Part shown: one piece after another, positions 6,336-58,264 of the stretch | Position numbering within the stretch: position 1 is the stretch's first letter | How the letters are laid out: each line of letters begins with the position of its first letter | IMG/VR virus record: IMGVR_UViG_2872147552_000001 | DNA from: a virus | Taxonomy: Duplodnaviria; Heunggongvirae; Uroviricota; Caudoviricetes | DNA length: 64,000 nt | Strand: one strand, 5' to 3' | Notes under the pieces: model-generated | What the model was told of the DNA's origin: nothing | Databases searched by the model: none | The model's input: only the letters and a program-made list of their open reading frames with translations | Position numbers and translations under genes: made by a program

Positions 6336-6378
6336 GTGCTTTCCTTTGTTTTTTAAACAAATTGTTTTCTAGTATTAG

Positions 6379-45745: not shown

Positions 45746-46168
45746 ATGAAATACTCGCTTCTCCCTCTACTAACGTTACCAGTGTTGATGCTTACCGCGT
45801 GCCAATCACGCCCAATATCAATCCATGACGCCAAACCAGCACCGCAGGCCAAAGTGTTCAAGTATCAAAGCGCAGCGCCAGCTACGTTGGTGGTAATGAG
45901 AGACACAGGTTTTGTAGGAGCTGGATGTGATGCTTCCATTTTCATCAACGGCGAAACTGTCGCAAAACTGGCTACAGGCGAAAAAGCGACTTTCCATTTA
46001 AATGCCGGAGAATTAATTGTGGGTGCATCTCTTGAAGGTGCAGGTTTATGTGCTCTAAACCCCGCTCGTCAAGAGCGAGAAACGACTCTGAAGAATGGAG
46101 ACACAAAAGCATTCAGGGTGTTCACCAGCAATTCTGGTGACATCGACATTCTGCCAACAACTCTGTGA
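45746..46168 (+). CDS. lipoprotein
   Basis: Start placed at MKYSLLPLLTLPVLMLTACQS (lipobox LTAC); track ORF from 45704. Confidence 0.6.
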   Translation: MKYSLLPLLTLPVLMLTACQSRPISIHDAKPAPQAKVFKYQSAAPATLVVMRDTGFVGAGCDASIFINGETVAKLATGEKATFHLNAGELIVGASLEGAGLCALNPARQERETTLKNGDTKAFRVFTSNSGDIDILPTTL

Positions 46169-46172
46169 TGAC

Positions 46173-46697
46173 ATGACAACCAAAGATATTACCTACGGTA
46201 TCCAAGCTGAACTCTGGCCGCGAGATTACACTAACGTTGAAAAACTACTGATGTTCTGGCGCAGAGAACAAATTCCTGTAAGGGTCACTCTCGAAGATGG
46301 CCAGGCGTTTTGCATGTACGTTTATGGCCTCATGCCATCTCGTAACAAAGTTGACCTTTGCCCAGCCCCTTTTGACAAAGAAAATCGTATAAGGCTCCCA
46401 CTTGAACGCATTAGTACAATTGAATCAGGTGTGGTTGACAGTATCGCTCACGATTTCAAAGGTCGACTAACAGTTCACCCTGATTATGTCGATAATCGGC
46501 CATCACGCCGCGATTTTTTTGCAATTTGCAACCAAGCCTACAAAGCAAACAAATCTATAAGGGTGTACATGGCGGATGGCCGTGAAATTGAGGGGGTGTC
46601 AGCAGGCGCAGATGCTTGTCAGGTTACACTACGTGTCGAGAACGGTAGAAAAATAGTTGTTTTGTTCGATTGGGTTGAACGAATTTTGCCTTTTTGA
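46173..46697 (+). CDS. hypothetical protein with internal duplicated beta-rich motif
   Basis: Start placed at first Met after upstream stop (track from 46095); repeated IPVRVTLEDG / IRVYMADG segments. Confidence 0.5.
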   Translation: MTTKDITYGIQAELWPRDYTNVEKLLMFWRREQIPVRVTLEDGQAFCMYVYGLMPSRNKVDLCPAPFDKENRIRLPLERISTIESGVVDSIAHDFKGRLTVHPDYVDNRPSRRDFFAICNQAYKANKSIRVYMADGREIEGVSAGADACQVTLRVENGRKIVVLFDWVERILPF

Positions 46698-48935: not shown

Positions 48936-49055
48936 GCAGCCGTTTCCCGAAAAAATCCTGGCCGTTTCCCGTCGGCTCATGAATACGTTCCTCGCCGTTT
49001 CTGAAAATTTCCCTGCGGCAGCTGGTGGCTATAGAGAAAGGGCCGTTTCTGGCCC
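48936..49055. repeat. iteron-like direct repeats (GCCGTTTCCCGAAAA family), cluster A
   Basis: Four copies of gccgtttc(c)c(g/t)gaaaa-like units at about 48938, 48961, 48994, 49042. Confidence 0.55.
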
Positions 49056-49064
49056 TCTTCTCAG

Positions 49065-49547
49065 TTACACGCCATCAAGGATGTGGATGCGGTTGCTTGC
49101 GTATACATTCAGCATAAAGTTAGCGCAAAACAGTTTCCATGTATCAACGCCAGCGGTATACGTAATGTTTTTGCATTTAATCGCATTGTTGGCGATCCGC
49201 ATCCCCTGCGATACTGCTTCATCGTCGGAAAATTTGAACGACGATTGAGTTTTAATCCAGACAGAAATCTGCGTAGCGAACTCAATCAGCTTGGACTGGC
49301 AGAATCGCCCGGAGCGCACCGGAAAGACGAACGTTCCGAATCCAGAATTTACCACATACGCTTTCTCAAATACCCGCGAGTAACGACGATTGCCAATGAT
49401 GTCGCGTGCAATAATGCATTTTTCTTGTGCTGACAGTTCTACCGTCTCATTGTCGCGCCATGCACCAAGTACTCGTTTTTCAATGTCAGAGAACGTTACA
49501 GCGATATTGCCATGTGCGGGTGCGTTTACAGTAGCGATAAAATTCAT
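49065..49547 (-). CDS. hypothetical protein
   Basis: 160-aa ORF with AAGGA RBS; GAAAACAA.TTGTTTTC-type operator upstream. Confidence 0.55.
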   Translation of the reverse strand: MNFIATVNAPAHGNIAVTFSDIEKRVLGAWRDNETVELSAQEKCIIARDIIGNRRYSRVFEKAYVVNSGFGTFVFPVRSGRFCQSKLIEFATQISVWIKTQSSFKFSDDEAVSQGMRIANNAIKCKNITYTAGVDTWKLFCANFMLNVYASNRIHILDGV

Positions 49548-49724
49548 GATTAATTCCTTATCGTAAATAACAAATTGTTTTCTTGTTGGTGTTAATTATC
49601 GTTGTACGAATAAGGCGTCAAAGTGGAAAGTTGCGGTAGCCGGACGGGAACAGGTGGGTTTGTCGGTTGCCTGGAGGTAAGAGGTTGGTGTTTTTAGCCT
49701 GCGGGAAACAGGATGGTCATTTAA

Positions 49725-49744
49725 GGCCACCAGCATTGGTGGCC
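49725..49744. terminator. hairpin terminator (ggccaccagcattggtggcc)
   Basis: Perfect 8-bp stem immediately downstream of the 49752 gene stop; related hairpins at about 50196-50216, 51821-51839, 58827-58847, 63100-63120. Confidence 0.55.
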
Positions 49745-49751
49745 TTAATCT

Positions 49752-50039: not shown

Positions 50040-50368
50040 ATCCTCACTGCGTAAACATGTTGTTTTCTTGTTGGTGTAATTATCGCAGTGTAGATAAGGC
50101 ATAAAAGAAGTTAATACAGGCTGAATACACAAGAAAGGTTCTGGAAGTTGATAGCCAGGTTTCAAACTAACCTTCGGTTATTAAAAGTCATTTAAGACCA
50201 CCAATGCTGGTGGCCTTAATAATTATCGACCGATTACGCTAAGGATCTTTTCCTCAACTGATTTGTTGTTGCGACTAAACTGCCTTGCGTATCTGATGAC
50301 AGAAGAGGCGTTTTGCTTTCTGACCATCTCGGCTCTTTCCTTCAGGCGTTTCTTGAAATCGCCCATAT

Positions 50369-51848: not shown

Positions 51849-52178
51849 TTACTCGAATACTTCAAGAAACTCCTGAACGTCCCAATGCTGGACGAGGTGA
51901 AGATAGACCTTAGAAATCACGTCATTTTCGCTATCGCATGTGAAGTAGTACTTCTGGCTGCGGTTGTATGTGTCCACACAAAATTCGCTCATATCCATAA
52001 AGTCAGCATCTTCACCCATGTCGCAAATCATCAAAGCAGGTGCGTCATCACGAGTCATCAGCTCAAGCACCCACCGCGAATTGATCAGAGTGGAAGACCA
52101 ACCTTCTAACTCATAAAACTGATCAAACTCTTTTTGAGTTAATTTCTTGATTTGGTTGATGTCGATATTTGCAAACAT
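51849..52178 (-). CDS. small acidic protein
   Basis: Start at MFANIDINQIKKL with AAGGA RBS (track to 52196); net charge about -17. Confidence 0.55.
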   Translation of the reverse strand: MFANIDINQIKKLTQKEFDQFYELEGWSSTLINSRWVLELMTRDDAPALMICDMGEDADFMDMSEFCVDTYNRSQKYYFTCDSENDVISKVYLHLVQHWDVQEFLEVFE

Positions 52179-52537
52179 AAAGCAATCCTTAAACAACTTG
52201 TTTTCTTGATGGTGTTATTATCGCAATAACGCACAGGCGAAAAAGGATTTTATTCCGGTGAATGTGGTTTTGGCAGTGAGTTTTCAGGTTCAGTACCGAG
52301 TACACTTTTTACATTATTCTGATTTAGTGGCCGAAGGTGGCTGGTGGGCAGAATAATCATCTCCCCGAAAACCTACTGAAATCGATTGTGACCCGTTGGC
52401 TGTCTGGCACAATTACGCTGTAGCTGGGCATTCAGAGGGAGTCCAACGGTAAGTTAGTCCGCCTGCACGTGAGCGCCTCTCTTCTTCCCGCACATTACAG
52501 GTGGGTAGCCGCAACTCTCCCTCACGCTATACCGGTA

Positions 52538-52680
52538 CGCCGCCGTTCCTGAACCGGCATCGAGCCTTTTCCCGAAATCCACACAGGCAACTCGACCGTT
52601 TCCCTGAAAACCTCCAGCCGTTCCCCGAAGGCAACCCAGCCGTTTCTGTAGCGGGATGCAGCTTTTTCCCTGTATGGACC
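52538..52680. repeat. iteron-like direct repeats (GCCGTTTCCCGAAAA family), cluster B
   Basis: About six units spaced 22-31 bp (gccgttcctgaa, gccttttcccgaaa, accgtttccctgaaaa, gccgttccccgaagg, gccgtttctgtag, gctttttccctgta). Confidence 0.55.
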
Positions 52681-53731
52681 GAAGGCTGACCGTAGGGGTG
52701 TTACGGGGGATAAAATCAGGAGTTGAATAAATACGAAAAAGGAGGCGACACCCCTCCTTCCCTCCCCACTTATACATACCTGGCTTCTTCGCTATACATG
52801 TTGTGTTTTATTCGTGTTTTATCTGTCTCAACCTCTCTATGGACGTTAACACTCACTCCTTCCAGAACGTTCTATACGGCGACTAATTCTGTTGGTGAAT
52901 TGGGTGTGTTGTTCTCTCTGTCGGTGTATGTGGTTTCGTTCGTTTTGCGGTGGTTCTTCTATGGGGTGTTCTCGTCGTTTTGGTGATTGTTCTTCTCCGT
53001 GTATGGAGTAATGGCAGGTGGGCGATTCCTTTCGTTGTTGTGTTTGAGTTGTTTGTCTGGAGTGTGAAAGGCTTTTGTAGTTATTCGTGTATTGGGTAAT
53101 GGCGTTTCCCGTGATTGTTCTGTTTCGTGTCTTTTGGGATTGAGAGAAGCCTTGCGGTTACAGGCTTCGTTGGGGGTTCAGTGATTCTGGTGTTTCTTCG
53201 CTGTTTGGGTAATGGCGTGTCGTGGGTATCGCGCGTATGAATGTTTTCGGATTGCCTGTGAAAGTTAGGTTGGTTGTCCGGTAGCCTGGGGAGAAGAGGT
53301 GGGTCTTTTCGGTAGCCTGCCATAAAGAGGTTGGTTGTTTTTGGAAATGGCATATGTGTTATTTAGTTGTTTTGTTATGCCTGAAAATAAGTTGTTTATA
53401 TGGTTATGTAACGCAACGGGAACGATTTTGAGCGTGTGTTTTTGTTGGTAGTGTGTTGGGTCGTCTGTGGTGAAAATTGGACGCTGTGGCGCTGTCTGCT
53501 GCGTAGAATTACGGGTATAAGCAGTGATGTGTGAAAACGTCAATTTTTTAGACCAAATAGGGTGAAAGCGTTGATGTTTCGTTGATCTGTTATTTAGTTG
53601 TTTTCTTGTTTGTATAAACAACTATAACCTATTGATATTTAAGGATGTGATTGCGGGTATGGAAGGGGAGTAGTGGCGATCAACGGATTCTTATAGAAAA
53701 GAATCAAATTGTGACCGCCATTATCAATGTT

Positions 53732-54466
53732 TTACTTAGTTTTGTTTAGCAGAGAGAGAATTTCATCACTAATTTCACTCGCCTGTTTGATAGCCAATGC
53801 AGTTACCTCTTCTATGGTTGGTGACTGTTGATGCTCATGTTTGGTTTCAGTTATGACAATGTGTTCTTCACCTGAATTTGCGCATAGTGCCGCATTGACT
53901 ATAAGGTTTGAGTAAGAATTTAGCAGAGCACTGTTGATAAACGCTTTCACGGTATTACTGTCTGCACCAAATACATCTTTTCTGACCGCTTCAGCCTCAC
54001 AGCGAACCCCTGCAGCAACATCGTGAAGAACATGTATGGCCTTGGAGCTTGTTTGTTCACAGTACTCAATCATTATTGTCGAATTGTTCTGTTCAACAAA
54101 TGATCTGATGCCTGACGATTCACCCATAGCATCGAAGGCAGCGTGACCCGCACTAGTAGAGATATCTTCGTAGAGTTCTTCATCGCTATCTTTTTCTTCA
54201 GGTGTCGAGGTGTCTTCATCGTCGTAATAGATATTGCCTTTAATCAGTGTTTTGGATACTTGATATAAACAATAAGAGACGAGATTTAAGCATTGGATTT
54301 TAGCTGTATTGTCCTTTGTCGCCTCGCTCTTCAGTTCTTTCGCTTCTTCAGTAAGGCTGTTGATAAGACTTTGTATTTTTTCCAACGCGTTAGGTGCACA
54401 CTCCGCGTTGTCCATAAAGAATTTATAACCAGTTCCAGGGATTTCTAAACTTTTCAACTTTTTCAT
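53732..54466 (-). CDS. hypothetical acidic protein
   Basis: 244-aa ORF, first gene left of the metG-proximal operator pair. Confidence 0.55.
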   Translation of the reverse strand: MKKLKSLEIPGTGYKFFMDNAECAPNALEKIQSLINSLTEEAKELKSEATKDNTAKIQCLNLVSYCLYQVSKTLIKGNIYYDDEDTSTPEEKDSDEELYEDISTSAGHAAFDAMGESSGIRSFVEQNNSTIMIEYCEQTSSKAIHVLHDVAAGVRCEAEAVRKDVFGADSNTVKAFINSALLNSYSNLIVNAALCANSGEEHIVITETKHEHQQSPTIEEVTALAIKQASEISDEILSLLNKTK

Positions 54467-54972: not shown

Positions 54973-57006
54973 TTACTTAACCTGGTGGCCAGGTTTAGCA
55001 CCAGCATCCGGGCTTAACAGGAAGATATCTTTCCCGCCGGGGCCAGCAGCCATCACCATGCCTTCAGAGATACCGAAGCGCATTTTACGTGGTGCCAGGT
55101 TAGCCACCATAATGGTGTGACGACCAATCAGTGCCTGTGGATCTGGATAAGCGGAACGGATGCCTGAGAAGACATTACGCTTTTCACCACCGAGATCCAG
55201 CGTCAGGCGAAGCAGTTTGTCAGAACCTTCTACAAACTCTGCGTTTTCAATCAGCGCCACGCGCAGGTCAACTTTGGCGAAGTCGTCAAAGGTGATAGTT
55301 TCCTGAATCGGGTCGTCAGCCAGTGGGCCAGTTACCGGTGCGGCTGTGGCTTTCACTTCTTCTTTGGATGCTTCCACCAGTGCTTCAACCTGCTTCATAT
55401 CGATGCGGTTATACAGTGCCTTGAACGGATTTACTTTATGGCCCAGCAGCGGTTGCTGGATACCATCCCAGGTCAGTTCTGTATTCAGGAATGCTTCTGC
55501 ACGTTCAGTCAGTTTCGGCAGTACCGGCTTCAGGTACGTCATCAGCACGCGGAACAGGTTAATGCCCATAGAGCAAATCGCCTGCAGATCGGCATCGCGA
55601 CCTTCCTGCTTCGCCACCACCCACGGAGCCTGTTCATCGACATAGCGGTTAGCCAGGTCAGCCAATGCCATGATTTCACGGATAGCTTTACCAAATTCGC
55701 GGCTTTCCCATGCTTCGCCAATCACTTCAGCGGCATCAGTAAAGGTTTTGTACAGTTGCGGGTCAGCCAGTTCGCTTGCCAGCACGCCGTCAAAACGCTT
55801 GTTTATAAAGCCTGCATTACGGGAGGCCAGGTTAACCACTTTGTTCACGATATCGGCATTCACGCGCTGAACGAAATCCTCCAGGTTGAGATCGATATCA
55901 TCAATGCGCGAAGAGAGTTTCGCAGTGTAGTAGTAACGCAGGCTGTCGGCGTCAAAATGATTCAGCCAGGTGCTGGCTTTAATAAAGGTGCCGCGAGACT
56001 TGGACATCTTCGCGCCGTTCACCGTCACATAGCCGTGAACAAACAGGTTGGTCGGCTTGCGGAAGTTGCTGCCTTCCAGCATGGCAGGCCAGAACAGGCT
56101 GTGGAAGTAAACAATATCTTTACCGATGAAGTGGTACAGCTCGGCGGTGGAGTCTTTCTTCCAGTATTCATCGAAGCTGGTGGTATCGCCGCGCTTGTCG
56201 CACAGATTCTTGAAGGAACCCATGTAGCCAATCGGCGCGTCCAGCCAGACGTAGAAATATTTGCCCGGCGCGTCCGGAATTTCAAAACCGAAGTAAGGCG
56301 CATCGCGGGAGATATCCCACTGTTGCAGGCCGGATTCAAACCATTCCTGCATTTTGTTCGCCACCTGCTCCTGCAACGCGCCGCTGCGGGTCCATGCCTG
56401 CAACATTTCGCTGAAAGAAGGCAGATCAAAGAAGAAGTGTTCGGAATCACGCATTACCGGGGTAGCGCCAGAAACCACCGATTTCGGCTCGATCAATTCA
56501 GTCGGGCTATATGTTGCGCCGCAGACTTCACAGTTATCGCCGTATTGATCTGGCGCTTTACATTTCGGGCAGGTGCCTTTTACAAAACGATCCGGCAGGA
56601 ACATGCCTTTTTCCGGGTCGTACAACTGAGAGATAGTGCGGTTTTTAATAAAACCGTTCTCTTTCAGGCGAGTATAGATAAGCTCAGACAACTGACGGTT
56701 CTCTTCGCTGTGCGTCGAGTGATAGTTGTCATAGCTGATGTTAAAGCCTGCGAAATCAGTCTGGTGTTCCTGACTCATTTCGCCAATCATCTGCTCCGGT
56801 GTGATACCAAGCTGCTGCGCTTTCAGCATGATCGGCGTACCGTGGGCATCGTCGGCACAGATGAAATTAACCTCGTGGCCGCGCATTCGCTGGTAACGAA
56901 CCCAGACATCAGCCTGGATGTGCTCCAGCATATGGCCGAGGTGGATTGAGCCGTTAGCGTACGGCAGCGCGCACGTCACCAGAATTTTCTTCGCGACTTG
57001 GGTCAT
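54973..57006 (-). CDS. metG: methionine--tRNA ligase
   Basis: 677-aa product starting [37 protein letters not shown] and KMSKS motifs, Zn knuckle CPKC...CEVC; recalled from memory as near-identical to E. coli MetG; track ORF has a 43-codon spurious N-terminal extension. Confidence 0.97.
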
Positions 57007-57163
57007 AGTAGGCATTACTTCTTTGTAGTGAAAAGGGGCTTGATAGTAACAAAATGGCCTTATGTCTGCCATGTGATAACAGCATTTCTCATAAATGATT
57101 AAATGTCGTAGCTGGAGTACACTACAAGGCGACAATTGCGCAAATTAAAATAAAGGAGACGGG

Positions 57164-58264
57164 ATGAGCGAGTCCAAATCGCCGGATGCCCTGAGAGCAA
57201 TGGTAGCCGGTACGCTGGCTAATTTTCAGCACCCAACCCTGAAACACAACCTGACTACGCTTAAAGCGTTACACCATGTTGCGTTGATGGATGACACACT
57301 GCATGTCGAACTAATCATGCCTTTCGTGTGGAATAAGCCTTTTGAAGACCTGAAAGAGCAATGTAGTGGTGATCTGCTCCGTATCACTGGCGCAAAGGCT
57401 ATTGACTGGAAGCTGTCGTACAACATTGCCACGCTTAAGCGCGTCAAAAACCAACCAGGCATTAATGGCGTTAAGAACATTATCGCCGTCAGCTCAGGCA
57501 AGGGCGGCGTGGGTAAATCCTCCACGGCGGTAAACCTGGCACTGGCGTTGGCTGCTGAAGGTGCGAAAGTTGGTATTTTGGATGCCGATATCTATGGTCC
57601 ATCAATTCCAACCATGCTGGGTGCGGAAAACCAACGTCCAACCTCACCTGACGGTACTCACATGGCACCTATCATGTCTCATGGCCTGGCAACCAACTCT
57701 ATTGGTTATCTGGTCACCGACGACAATGCAATGGTGTGGCGTGGACCGATGGCCAGCAAGGCGCTGATGCAGATGTTGCAGGAAACTCTATGGCCTGATC
57801 TGGACTATCTCGTTCTCGATATGCCGCCGGGCACTGGTGATATTCAGTTGACGCTGGCGCAGAACATTCCTGTAACTGGTGCGGTTGTGGTAACTACGCC
57901 GCAAGACATCGCGCTGATCGATGCGAAGAAAGGCATTGTGATGTTCGAAAAAGTCGAAGTGCCGGTACTGGGTATCGTCGAAAACATGAGTGTGCATATT
58001 TGCAGTAACTGCGGTCATCACGAGCCAATTTTTGGCACCGGTGGCGCACAGAAACTGGCCGAGAAATACAACACGCAGTTGTTAGGCCAAATGCCACTTC
58101 ATATCTCTCTTCGTGAAGATCTGGATAACGGAACACCAACCGTTATTAGTCGTCCAGATAGCGAATTTACGGCTATTTATCGTGACCTCGCAGATCGCGT
58201 TGCCGCCCAAATGTATTGGCAAGGTGAAGTAATACCTGGCGAAATCGCATTCCGCGCAGTGTGA
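57164..58264 (+). CDS. apbC: Fe-S cluster carrier ATPase Mrp/ApbC
   Basis: P-loop SGKGGVGKSST, CxxC motif ICSNCGHH; 366 aa; divergent from metG as in the E. coli chromosome. Confidence 0.95.
   Translation: MSESKSPDALRAMVAGTLANFQHPTLKHNLTTLKALHHVALMDDTLHVELIMPFVWNKPFEDLKEQCSGDLLRITGAKAIDWKLSYNIATLKRVKNQPGINGVKNIIAVSSGKGGVGKSSTAVNLALALAAEGAKVGILDADIYGPSIPTMLGAENQRPTSPDGTHMAPIMSHGLATNSIGYLVTDDNAMVWRGPMASKALMQMLQETLWPDLDYLVLDMPPGTGDIQLTLAQNIPVTGAVVVTTPQDIALIDAKKGIVMFEKVEVPVLGIVENMSVHICSNCGHHEPIFGTGGAQKLAEKYNTQLLGQMPLHISLREDLDNGTPTVISRPDSEFTAIYRDLADRVAAQMYWQGEVIPGEIAFRAV

Follow-up and report, generated by a model that had tools for sequence, protein, structure and literature searches.

A long strand-biased tract in SSU5-type phage-plasmids, a putative one-way Rho-dependent barrier to transcription

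Location and distribution of the region

The DNA analyzed here, referred to throughout as the window, is a stretch of 64,000 nucleotides (nt) from the Caudoviricetes record IMGVR_UViG_2872147552_000001. It contains, between two minus-strand genes (51849–52178 and 53732–54466), a gene-free control region of 1,552 bp (52179–53731), delimited from the list of open reading frames (ORFs) and the annotation of near-identical records. Within this region lies the subject of this report, a tract whose plus strand is dominated by G and T and which we tentatively regard as a one-way barrier to transcription.

Region 52200–53750 is 96–98% identical to ~170 plasmids of Escherichia coli and E. albertii (~105–125 kb) and 97.4% identical to pLF82, that is, phage Cyrano [OV696614] of E. 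coli LF82; Salmonella phage SSU5 gave weaker matches. These matches to Cyrano, the plasmids and SSU5 identify the window as a phage-plasmid of the SSU5/pHCM2 type. PGAP/RefSeq records have no feature annotated in the gap 52179–53731; two hypothetical ORFs, CYRAN_103 and CYRAN_104, were placed there by the authors of the Cyrano record.

A sensitive BLAST search recovered the tract from 838 PLSDB plasmids, with identities from 98% down to ~67%, in the genera Klebsiella, Escherichia, Enterobacter, Salmonella (including pHCM2), Citrobacter and Cronobacter. Among complete E. coli genomes 243 of 5,426 (4.5%) carry it, plasmid-borne in every case and with no annotated feature beneath it. Annotated plasmid stretches together with a scan of IMG/VR yielded 62 copies, which were reduced to 25 lineages. 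Homology among the relatives stops at ~53735. We found no published description of the region in the searchable, openable literature, and other phage-plasmid papers are silent on it.

Composition and its conservation

On the plus strand, positions 52780–53700 consist of A.178, C.136, G.296 and T.390, a G+T fraction of.686, while 300-nt segments across the window have a mean of.500 (standard deviation.042) and the tract reaches a maximum of.767. The G+T-rich, strand-biased tract described in the original prediction, which was made from the letters of the sequence, is thus real (69% G+T against 50±4% elsewhere in the window). Kilobase 53001–54000 is the only one of the window to combine a GC skew of +0.33 with an AT skew of −0.27. 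As to extent, the predicted kilobase 52780–53700 is biased overall, but the strong bias runs from ~52880 to ~53500 and tails off by ~53620, and the gene-free region around it is larger. In the core so defined (52880–53500) the plus strand is 69–81% G+T per 100 nt. The bias in the window is strongest at the left end, next to the iterons described below, a gradient which is weak in the relatives; other non-coding parts of the gap show no bias. A minus-sense RNA of the core would have the composition A.40, C.33, G.13 and U.14, and the predicted C/A-rich, G-poor character, that of Rho utilisation (rut) sites, is accordingly confirmed.

All 25 lineages hold 60–78% G+T over 700–900 nt, and the bias persists in relatives which are only 59–69% identical, so that the proposed check for conservation across related elements came out in favor: the tract and its bias are kept in every relative. 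In the alignment G+T amounts to 69% at variable and 74% at invariant columns, and columns polymorphic for G and T outnumber those polymorphic for A and C by 41 to 5. Since the bias is equal at variable and invariant columns and the polymorphism is so one-sided, it is the composition itself that is maintained. The sequence is otherwise a mosaic, in which blocks of 85–93% identity (52960–53020, 53280–53320, 53360–53440, 53540–53600 and 53680–53720) are separated by stretches of 59–65%.

Absence of coding capacity

ORFs of 87 amino acids (aa) on the plus strand and of 90 and 118 aa on the minus strand can be drawn in the tract. They had already been thought implausible, and we agree: all three are artefacts of composition, T and G being so scarce on the minus strand that stop codons are rare in each of its frames, and none of the ORFs is conserved in relatives. 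Comparison of the window with 16 relatives showed no codon periodicity, mismatches being spread evenly over the three phases (p = 0.46–0.99), and 7–15 indels per pair, mostly not multiples of three. The stop-free minus-strand stretches, which occur in three frames, have different limits in different lineages. No small ORF is conserved on either strand; shared stop codons occur only within conserved non-coding motifs, and the peptides before them are unrelated.

The two ORFs of the Cyrano record fare no better. CYRAN_104 (52373–52777, minus strand) overlaps the iteron array and CYRAN_103 (53265–53621, minus strand) is a stop-poor frame in the A/C-rich strand. Both were rejected as protein genes, there being no codon-phase pattern, frameshifting indels and ORF boundaries which are not shared; almost certainly they are not genes.

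RNA structure and the entry into the tract

A scan of 48–56 kb against Rfam gave nothing in the tract at E <= 1. The minus-sense core RNA (621 nt) has a minimum free energy of only −79 kcal/mol; that of the plus-sense RNA is −155 kcal/mol, no better than shuffled sequences give (z = −0.2). Consensus folding over 17 lineages returned an energy of ~0 for the minus strand of 52860–53345, and on both strands the core lacks a consensus structure apart from short hairpins and palindromes at its edges. Such structure is confined to a hairpin at 53720–53674, an inverted repeat at 53533–53580, an operator-like palindrome and a hairpin at 52762–52736. The tract is therefore neither a gene nor a structured RNA.

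Read leftward, the region opens with the right-edge hairpin (53674–53720, minus strand), a stem of 9 bp whose consensus fold has z = −7.0 on the minus strand (−3.0 on the plus strand); one pair is G.U on the former and A.C on the latter. It lies in a block conserved at 84–93%, and whatever accessory gene adjoins the tract, the stop codon of that gene precedes the hairpin by a few tens of nt. Directly after it comes a C/U-rich, nearly G-free, rut-like entry stretch (53622–53673, minus strand), which averages C.37 and G.13 over the 25 lineages. Its first ~30 nt are free of G in every lineage, and although the sequence differs (column identity 0.50–0.60) the composition is kept. In 27 of the 33 distinct contexts on the right flank the closest long ORF is directed into the tract, and many stops lie within a few tens of nt of the hairpin. 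No canonical intrinsic terminator was found between the stop codon and 53621.

The minus-sense core shares the properties of rut sites: a C-rich, G-poor (C>G) stretch of at least ~80 nt, little RNA secondary structure, and a position in untranslated RNA behind a stop codon of the same orientation. Minus-strand segments of 78 nt with a C/G ratio of at least 3 number 20 in the 64 kb; 14 of these are in the tract and three at a related set of repeat units near 49.7 kb. The entry segment, being untranslated, behind a stop, G-free, C-rich and constant in composition while its sequence drifts, has what a Rho terminator needs.

At its left end the tract is bounded by the terminator-like hairpin (52736–52762, minus strand; consensus fold z = −2.8 on that strand). 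In the E. coli lineage this has a canonical U-run; elsewhere the hairpin is kept with another sequence and a weaker U-run. A CA-rich translation leader, another suggestion of the original prediction, is unlikely because no gene lies between the tract and this hairpin.

Published expression data

Strand-specific RNA sequencing (RNA-seq) data for LF82 (GSE154648) have been re-analysed on the Cyrano annotation [PMC9928086]. The values in the S1 Table of that paper are log2(FPKM+5), FPKM being fragments per kilobase per million mapped fragments, and 2.32 corresponds to zero. CYRAN_102, the gene ending at 53732, scored 6.0–9.2; CYRAN_103 (53265–53621, minus sense) scored 2.32 and 2.32 in LB and no more than 4.27 in other conditions; and CYRAN_105, the operator-controlled gene to the left, scored 7.5–7.8 in macrophages [PMC9928086]. 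Across the right edge of the tract the minus-sense signal thus falls from up to ~590 to 0–14 FPKM. With CYRAN_102 high and CYRAN_103 close to zero, leftward transcription collapses within ~110 nt of the stop codon. A leftward promoter-like site inside the tract (53514–53543) was essentially silent in these conditions, and, a non-coding RNA having been considered possible, an abundant one in the lysogen is contradicted by the reading of 0 FPKM.

Promoter-like sites, repeated motifs and iterons

The leftward promoter-like site (53514–53543, minus strand) consists of TTGACG (53543–53538), an 18-nt spacer and TATACC (53519–53514). It occupies the same alignment columns in 23 of the 25 lineages, with a spacer of variable sequence and fixed length, and has TATACT in one of them (L003). 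As the second hexamer ends in C, T or G depending on the lineage, the site could at most serve as a weak sigma-70 promoter. Back to back with it is a rightward promoter-like site (53571–53598, plus strand), TTGAC(T/A/G), a 16-nt spacer and TTTATT, found in 21 of the 25 lineages; in the window the hexamers read TTGATG and TTTAGT, the second being poor. Both −35-like hexamers are held in the arms of the inverted repeat GAAAACGTCAA(C/T) ... GTTGA(C/T)nTTTC (53533–53580; minus-strand consensus fold z = −3.8), in which L003 has one compensatory arm change.

An operator-like pair follows at 53366–53397, composed of the palindrome AAATAAGTTGTTT (53385–53397) and an inverted half-site TTGTTTT. The palindrome AAACAAnTTGTTT is found 14 times in the window against 0.43 expected, at positions 6355, 9271, 40196, 40221, 49568, 50053, 50803, 51706, 52191, 53385, 54825, 54876, 58814 and 63087. 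It occupies the −35 or the early transcribed region of many minus-strand promoters, including those of the neighboring small genes, often just past a terminator hairpin. Judged by sequence and placement, the set looks like the dispersed-operator regulon of a putative phage regulator.

Two motif arrays lie further to the left. The first comprises two tandem 31-nt units (53276–53341, plus strand) of the form (T/C)CGGTAGCCTG-N6-AAGAGGT(G/T)GGT, the second half of which is AAGAGGTGGGT; they are 89–93% identical across lineages, have a spacer of variable sequence and fixed length, and occur in 1–3 copies in relatives. This is the repeat that the original prediction gave as GGTAGCCTG-N6-AGAGGTnGGT, and it is present at 53276–53305 and 53307–53336. 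The second array comprises three ~30-nt units, GTTCT(TCT)CCGYRTATKGRGTAATGGC (52987–53221, plus strand), with GTAATGGC at 53008, 53096 and 53209; the other predicted repeat, TGGGTAATGGCG, was located here at 53093–53104 and 53206–53217. Most relatives have five of these units at conserved spacings of 52, 41, 135 and 142 nt. GTAATGGC occurs 8 times in the window against 1.6 expected, and block 52980–53020 within the units is 89–93% identical. Tandem Repeats Finder reported no true tandem array in the tract. Between the GTAATGGC units and the hairpin at 52762–52736 lie ~100 nt of the most extreme A/C-rich minus-strand sequence. The units of both arrays and the promoter-like pair are probably DNA sites for putative proteins.

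Directly to the left of the tract are six phased iterons, CC(G/T)TTYCCY (52543–52670, plus strand), spaced by 22, 31, 22, 22 and 22 nt. These intervals recur unchanged in E. coli, Citrobacter, Salmonella pHCM2 and phage SSU5, and the iterons differ from the RepA iterons at the plasmid origin. A second cluster, four copies of CCGTTTC(CC/TG) (48940–49051, plus strand), lies 3.6 kb to the left, so that the two clusters flank an array of small early genes. A scan of genome contigs for phased iterons gave almost exclusively chance matches, plus one Kluyvera phage-plasmid. Also to the left, the related unit which had been predicted near 49640–49700 proved to be three tandem GGTAGCCKG-N6-AMAGGTKGGT units (49631–49723, plus strand), between a terminator hairpin (49721–49748) and the promoter of the gene starting at 49547. 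This cluster is conserved in relatives including SSU5 and Kluyvera, and is C-rich and G-poor on the minus strand. The original prediction was thus right about a non-coding tract of rut-like composition; it missed the promoter-like pair, the operator palindromes, two motif arrays and the six iterons.

A lineage-specific rightward promoter-like site (52686–52716, plus strand), with CTGACC, a 19-nt spacer and TAAAAT, points into the tract and scores in the top 0.1% of the window; it is found only in the window lineage and a Klebsiella lineage. In four others (L005, L006, L010 and L079, from Citrobacter, Salmonella and SSU5) a small plus-strand gene for an acidic protein of 80 aa reads towards the iterons and the tract (L005:779–1021, plus strand). 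The window lineage is without this gene and has the promoter-like site in its place.

The hairpin at 49721–49748 is one of two near-identical 28-nt terminator hairpins (TTAAGGCCACCAGCATTGGTGGCCTTAA), the other being at 50192–50219, and each has a Chi site in its stem. The window has 21 copies of Chi (GCTGGTGG), where 1.6 would be expected. Of the 14 copies below 42 kb, 13 lie on the minus strand; the stretch from 45 to 57 kb has five plus-strand copies, three of them intergenic (49021, 50206 and 52340) and opposite to the local coding strand, the polarity switching near 42–45 kb.

Neighboring genes

The tract has as neighbors genes for small unknown proteins, for methionyl-tRNA synthetase (54973–57135, minus strand) and for a ParA/Mrp-like (NUBPL-type) P-loop ATPase (57164–58264, plus strand). 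No Pfam replication or DNA-binding domain was found in the neighboring proteins. The NUBPL-type ATPase is listed among the lysogen-expressed genes in the published RNA-seq [PMC9928086].

Further away, ORF 46095–46697 (plus strand) matches the Pfam family "Repressor of phase-1 flagellin" (FljA-like, PF03614, E = 2.5e-84), and because of this match the phage-plasmid may interfere with flagellin expression of its host. In Klebsiella plasmids H56–H60 (L009) the right part of the tract and a DUF262 gene have moved into large IncFIB/IncHI1B hybrid plasmids, which shows that the boundary region is involved in cargo exchange.

A putative one-way barrier

The tract keeps its composition, neither codes nor folds into a structured RNA, lies behind stop codons and coincides with a collapse of minus-sense RNA in published data. 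These findings lead us to a reading which we prefer while holding it only tentatively: that the tract is a putative one-way Rho-dependent barrier shielding the six-iteron array and the repressor-controlled early genes. Here Rho as the agent and insulation as the purpose are what we infer. RNA polymerase would come out of the variable accessory-gene region that borders the tract on the right, or start at the weak internal promoter-like site. Having passed the last stop codon it would transcribe the conserved hairpin and then an RNA which is untranslated, G-poor, C-rich and nearly structure-free, on which Rho would load and release the polymerase; the terminator-like hairpin at 52762–52736 would serve as a backstop. 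Leftward transcription would in this way be stopped, and the G/U-rich RNA made by rightward transcription would be unusable by Rho. The iterons and the small early genes under operator control would thereby be insulated from accessory genes expressed in the lysogen. Both skews would be accounted for, since depletion of G and of U keeps a C/A-rich RNA unpaired, and the barrier would act in one direction only because the opposite transcript, being G/U-rich, is a poor substrate for Rho.

Several observations weigh against this proposal. A rut site needs ~80 nt, not 600–900, and a barrier does not explain the length of the tract, its highly conserved blocks, its motif arrays or the back-to-back promoter-like pair; blocks of 89–93% identity and phased arrays would be superfluous in an element that depends on composition only. 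Between the window and SSU5 the core is identical at a fraction of 0.75 of positions, where composition-matched shuffles give 0.55, which exceeds neutral conservation. The corresponding values for the two neighboring protein genes are 0.61–0.64 overall and only 0.36–0.45 at third codon positions. As the core lies above both the shuffles and synonymous sites, part of its sequence is under clear purifying selection. In the Klebsiella relatives the neighboring gene is directed away from the tract. Lastly, the RNA-seq table covers only 53265–53621 and only the minus sense, and the drop that it records could also reflect RNA decay or the hairpin alone.

Alternative interpretations

The main rival, which we consider a serious possibility though an unlikely one, is a cis-acting nucleoprotein region tied to the iterons, either a second (lytic) replication origin or a site controlling replication or partition. 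The motif arrays would then be protein-binding sites, and the G+T excess would mark a strand which is repeatedly displaced as single-stranded DNA and so subject to C>T and A>G deamination, or a zone of strand-specific loading or priming. In keeping with this, six iterons phased at 22 bp lie ~200 bp from the tract with their spacing kept as far as SSU5 and are unlike the RepA iterons of oriR, the second cluster is 3.6 kb away, and arrays with fixed spacing and variable spacers are typical of DNA–protein sites. Conservation above the level of synonymous sites, a bias which peaks in the window at the iteron-proximal end, and an RNase H and a UvsW-type helicase encoded by the phage fit as well. 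There is also an operator-controlled promoter-like module inside the tract, for which the repressor-controlled lytic replicon of P1 offers an analogue. Against an origin, DnaA boxes and an AT-rich unwinding element are absent (the G+C content is 42–47%), GATC is depleted and forms no cluster, and there is one weak match for an IHF site; no initiator gene is adjacent, the neighbors being small unknown proteins; and the bias gradient is weak in relatives. Chi polarity and GC skew switch near 42–45 kb and not at the tract. The energetics of RNA:DNA hybrids are average for either transcript, a result on R-loop propensity which is weak evidence.

Two other DNA-level candidates were tried and rejected. 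There is no 10–11-bp periodicity of AA/TT that would indicate DNA curvature, and variants of Chi occur in the tract at the frequency predicted by composition and do not form a Chi-like array.

A broader formulation, to which we give similarly limited credence, is that the tract, the six iterons and the distal clusters of iterons and units together make up an undescribed cis-acting machine of SSU5-type phage-plasmids. It may be a second, repressor-gated origin or control region in which one strand is kept free of pairing for loading or displacement, which would account for the arrays of motifs as well as for the extreme keto skew. Alternatively it may make a structure-free, A/C-rich RNA in the lytic phase which acts as a decoy for Rho.

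Such an RNA is the substance of the next rival, which strikes us as rather improbable: a regulated long non-coding RNA of ~770 nt, which would extend from the promoter-like site at 53543–53514 as far as the hairpin at 52736 and be produced in lytic growth but not in the lysogen. Single-stranded and A/C-rich, it would exert its effect in trans, for instance by serving Rho, or some other protein that binds single-stranded RNA, as a decoy. Its promoter-like site is present in 23 of 25 lineages, consensus-like in L003, and is followed downstream by operator palindromes as in the early genes; the hairpin at the 3' end is conserved, there is no ORF, the composition makes the RNA free of pairing, and the conserved repeated motifs could be sites at which proteins bind the RNA. 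On the other hand, the minus sense registers 0 FPKM in LB and no more than 14 in macrophage samples, in which neighbors under operator control reach ~200; the last position of the −10-like hexamer is variable, which is bad for sigma-70; and Rfam gave no match.

Two specific roles for an RNA were discarded. A sponge for Hfq was rejected, (A-R-N)n motifs not being enriched, as was a master antisense RNA: plus-strand RNA paired with early-gene leaders no better than did shuffled controls (z −0.9 to +1.4). The absence of complementarity to leaders beyond that due to composition also counts against the long minus-sense RNA, if only indirectly, since the RNA of the opposite strand was used in the test.

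It is quite unlikely, in our estimate, that the tract is a relic, in which the A/C-rich promoters and leaders of the small early genes would survive as decayed copies, skewed by mutation and without present function as a unit. Degenerate copies of a promoter/leader module can be discerned at 53597–53620 and 53385–53397, the segment left of the GGTAGCCTG units resembles, as read from the sequences, the promoter of the gene starting at 49547, and real early-gene leaders are themselves A/C-rich. A relic would hardly keep one architecture throughout 838 plasmids from at least six genera, however, or blocks of 89–93% identity while synonymous sites of the neighbors are near saturation; motif spacings are conserved, and other non-coding parts of the region are without bias.

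More doubtful still is a functional G/U-rich RNA of the plus strand, a long Rho-resistant leader or an antisense RNA in which the two CGGTAGCCTG units would act as ops sites for RfaH. The ops sequence is GGCGGTAGnnTG, on the non-template strand. The unit matches it at 8 of 10 specified positions, twice and with high conservation, as TCCGGTAGCCTG and TTCGGTAGCCTG; matches with up to two mismatches occur in the window at chance frequency (47 against 38±7), and the units have a second conserved half, AAGAGGTGGGT, which is absent from ops. In the window and Klebsiella lineages the strong promoter-like site at 52686–52716 is directed into the tract, and in other lineages the small plus-strand gene reads towards it, but that site is not conserved and no conserved rightward promoter lies upstream of the units. 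A G/U-rich RNA would escape Rho; its folding is no better than that of shuffled sequences (z = −0.2). In Klebsiella the gene bordering the tract on the right (DUF262) is a plus-strand gene, and where it has entered other plasmids the right part of the tract has accompanied it. In the window and most relatives (27 of 33 contexts), however, the right-hand neighbors are minus-strand genes, and DUF262 possesses its own upstream region, in which a −10-like TAAAAT precedes the start by ~30 nt.

A packaging site, finally, has no support; no terminase gene lies near the tract.

Significance

SSU5/pHCM2-type phage-plasmids are common in clinical and animal Enterobacteriaceae, and their resistance, toxin and defence genes lie in a variable region which starts exactly at the right edge of the tract. 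If the one-way barrier is real, it would explain how constitutive new cargo can be accommodated directly upstream of repressed lytic genes without triggering them. Should the tract instead be a second origin or control site, it would give access to the switch from plasmid to phage replication and could be targeted in order to cure these elements. Either way, ~1.5 kb of strongly conserved DNA is at present unannotated or mis-annotated as two hypothetical proteins.

Comparison with known systems

The closest known kind is the Rho-dependent terminator with its rut sites, as exemplified by rutA and rutB of lambda tR1 and by the silencing by Rho of transcription leaving horizontally acquired genes. 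As there, the RNA of the tract is untranslated, C-rich, G-poor, unstructured and just past a stop codon, transcript is lost downstream, and the entry segment keeps its composition while its sequence drifts. Unlike rut sites, the tract is ~10 times longer and has conserved blocks, motif arrays, operators and promoter-like sites; the role of Rho is putative.

With iteron origins (P1 oriR/incA, F and R6K, and P4 ori plus crr) it has in common six repeats phased at 22 bp and a second cluster kilobases away, in a gene-free region with several classes of repeated sites. The phased array adjoins the tract, however, and is not inside it. Unlike those origins, the region has no adjacent initiator, DnaA box or AT-rich unwinding element, and the RepA origin of the plasmid is elsewhere, with other iterons. 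To our knowledge a long keto-rich strand is not a described feature of origins.

Like the operators of P1 C1, which are scattered among early promoters including that of the lytic replicon, the 13-bp palindrome is dispersed (14 copies in the window, one pair in the tract); P1 operators are asymmetric 17-mers of different sequence, and the palindrome explains only 53366–53397. Like RfaH ops/JUMPStart elements, CGGTAGnnTG is found twice on one strand in a long untranslated region of mobile DNA, in hosts which possess RfaH. In the units of the tract, however, the first two G of ops are missing, a second half-site is attached and the similarity is not above chance; they would fit rightward transcription, yet most relatives have no conserved promoter or downstream operon. 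The CrcZ and CrcY sponge RNAs of Pseudomonas are likewise A/C-rich non-coding RNAs with repeated short motifs. Unlike in these, there is no enrichment of (A-R-N)n, no such RNA can be detected in the lysogen and Crc is missing from the hosts.

The tract is not a gene, has no Rfam family and does not show the tested marks of an oriC- or RepA-type origin. While the Rho-dependent terminator is thus its nearest counterpart, what is left over, namely the motif arrays and the iterons, could prove more unusual than a member of that kind.

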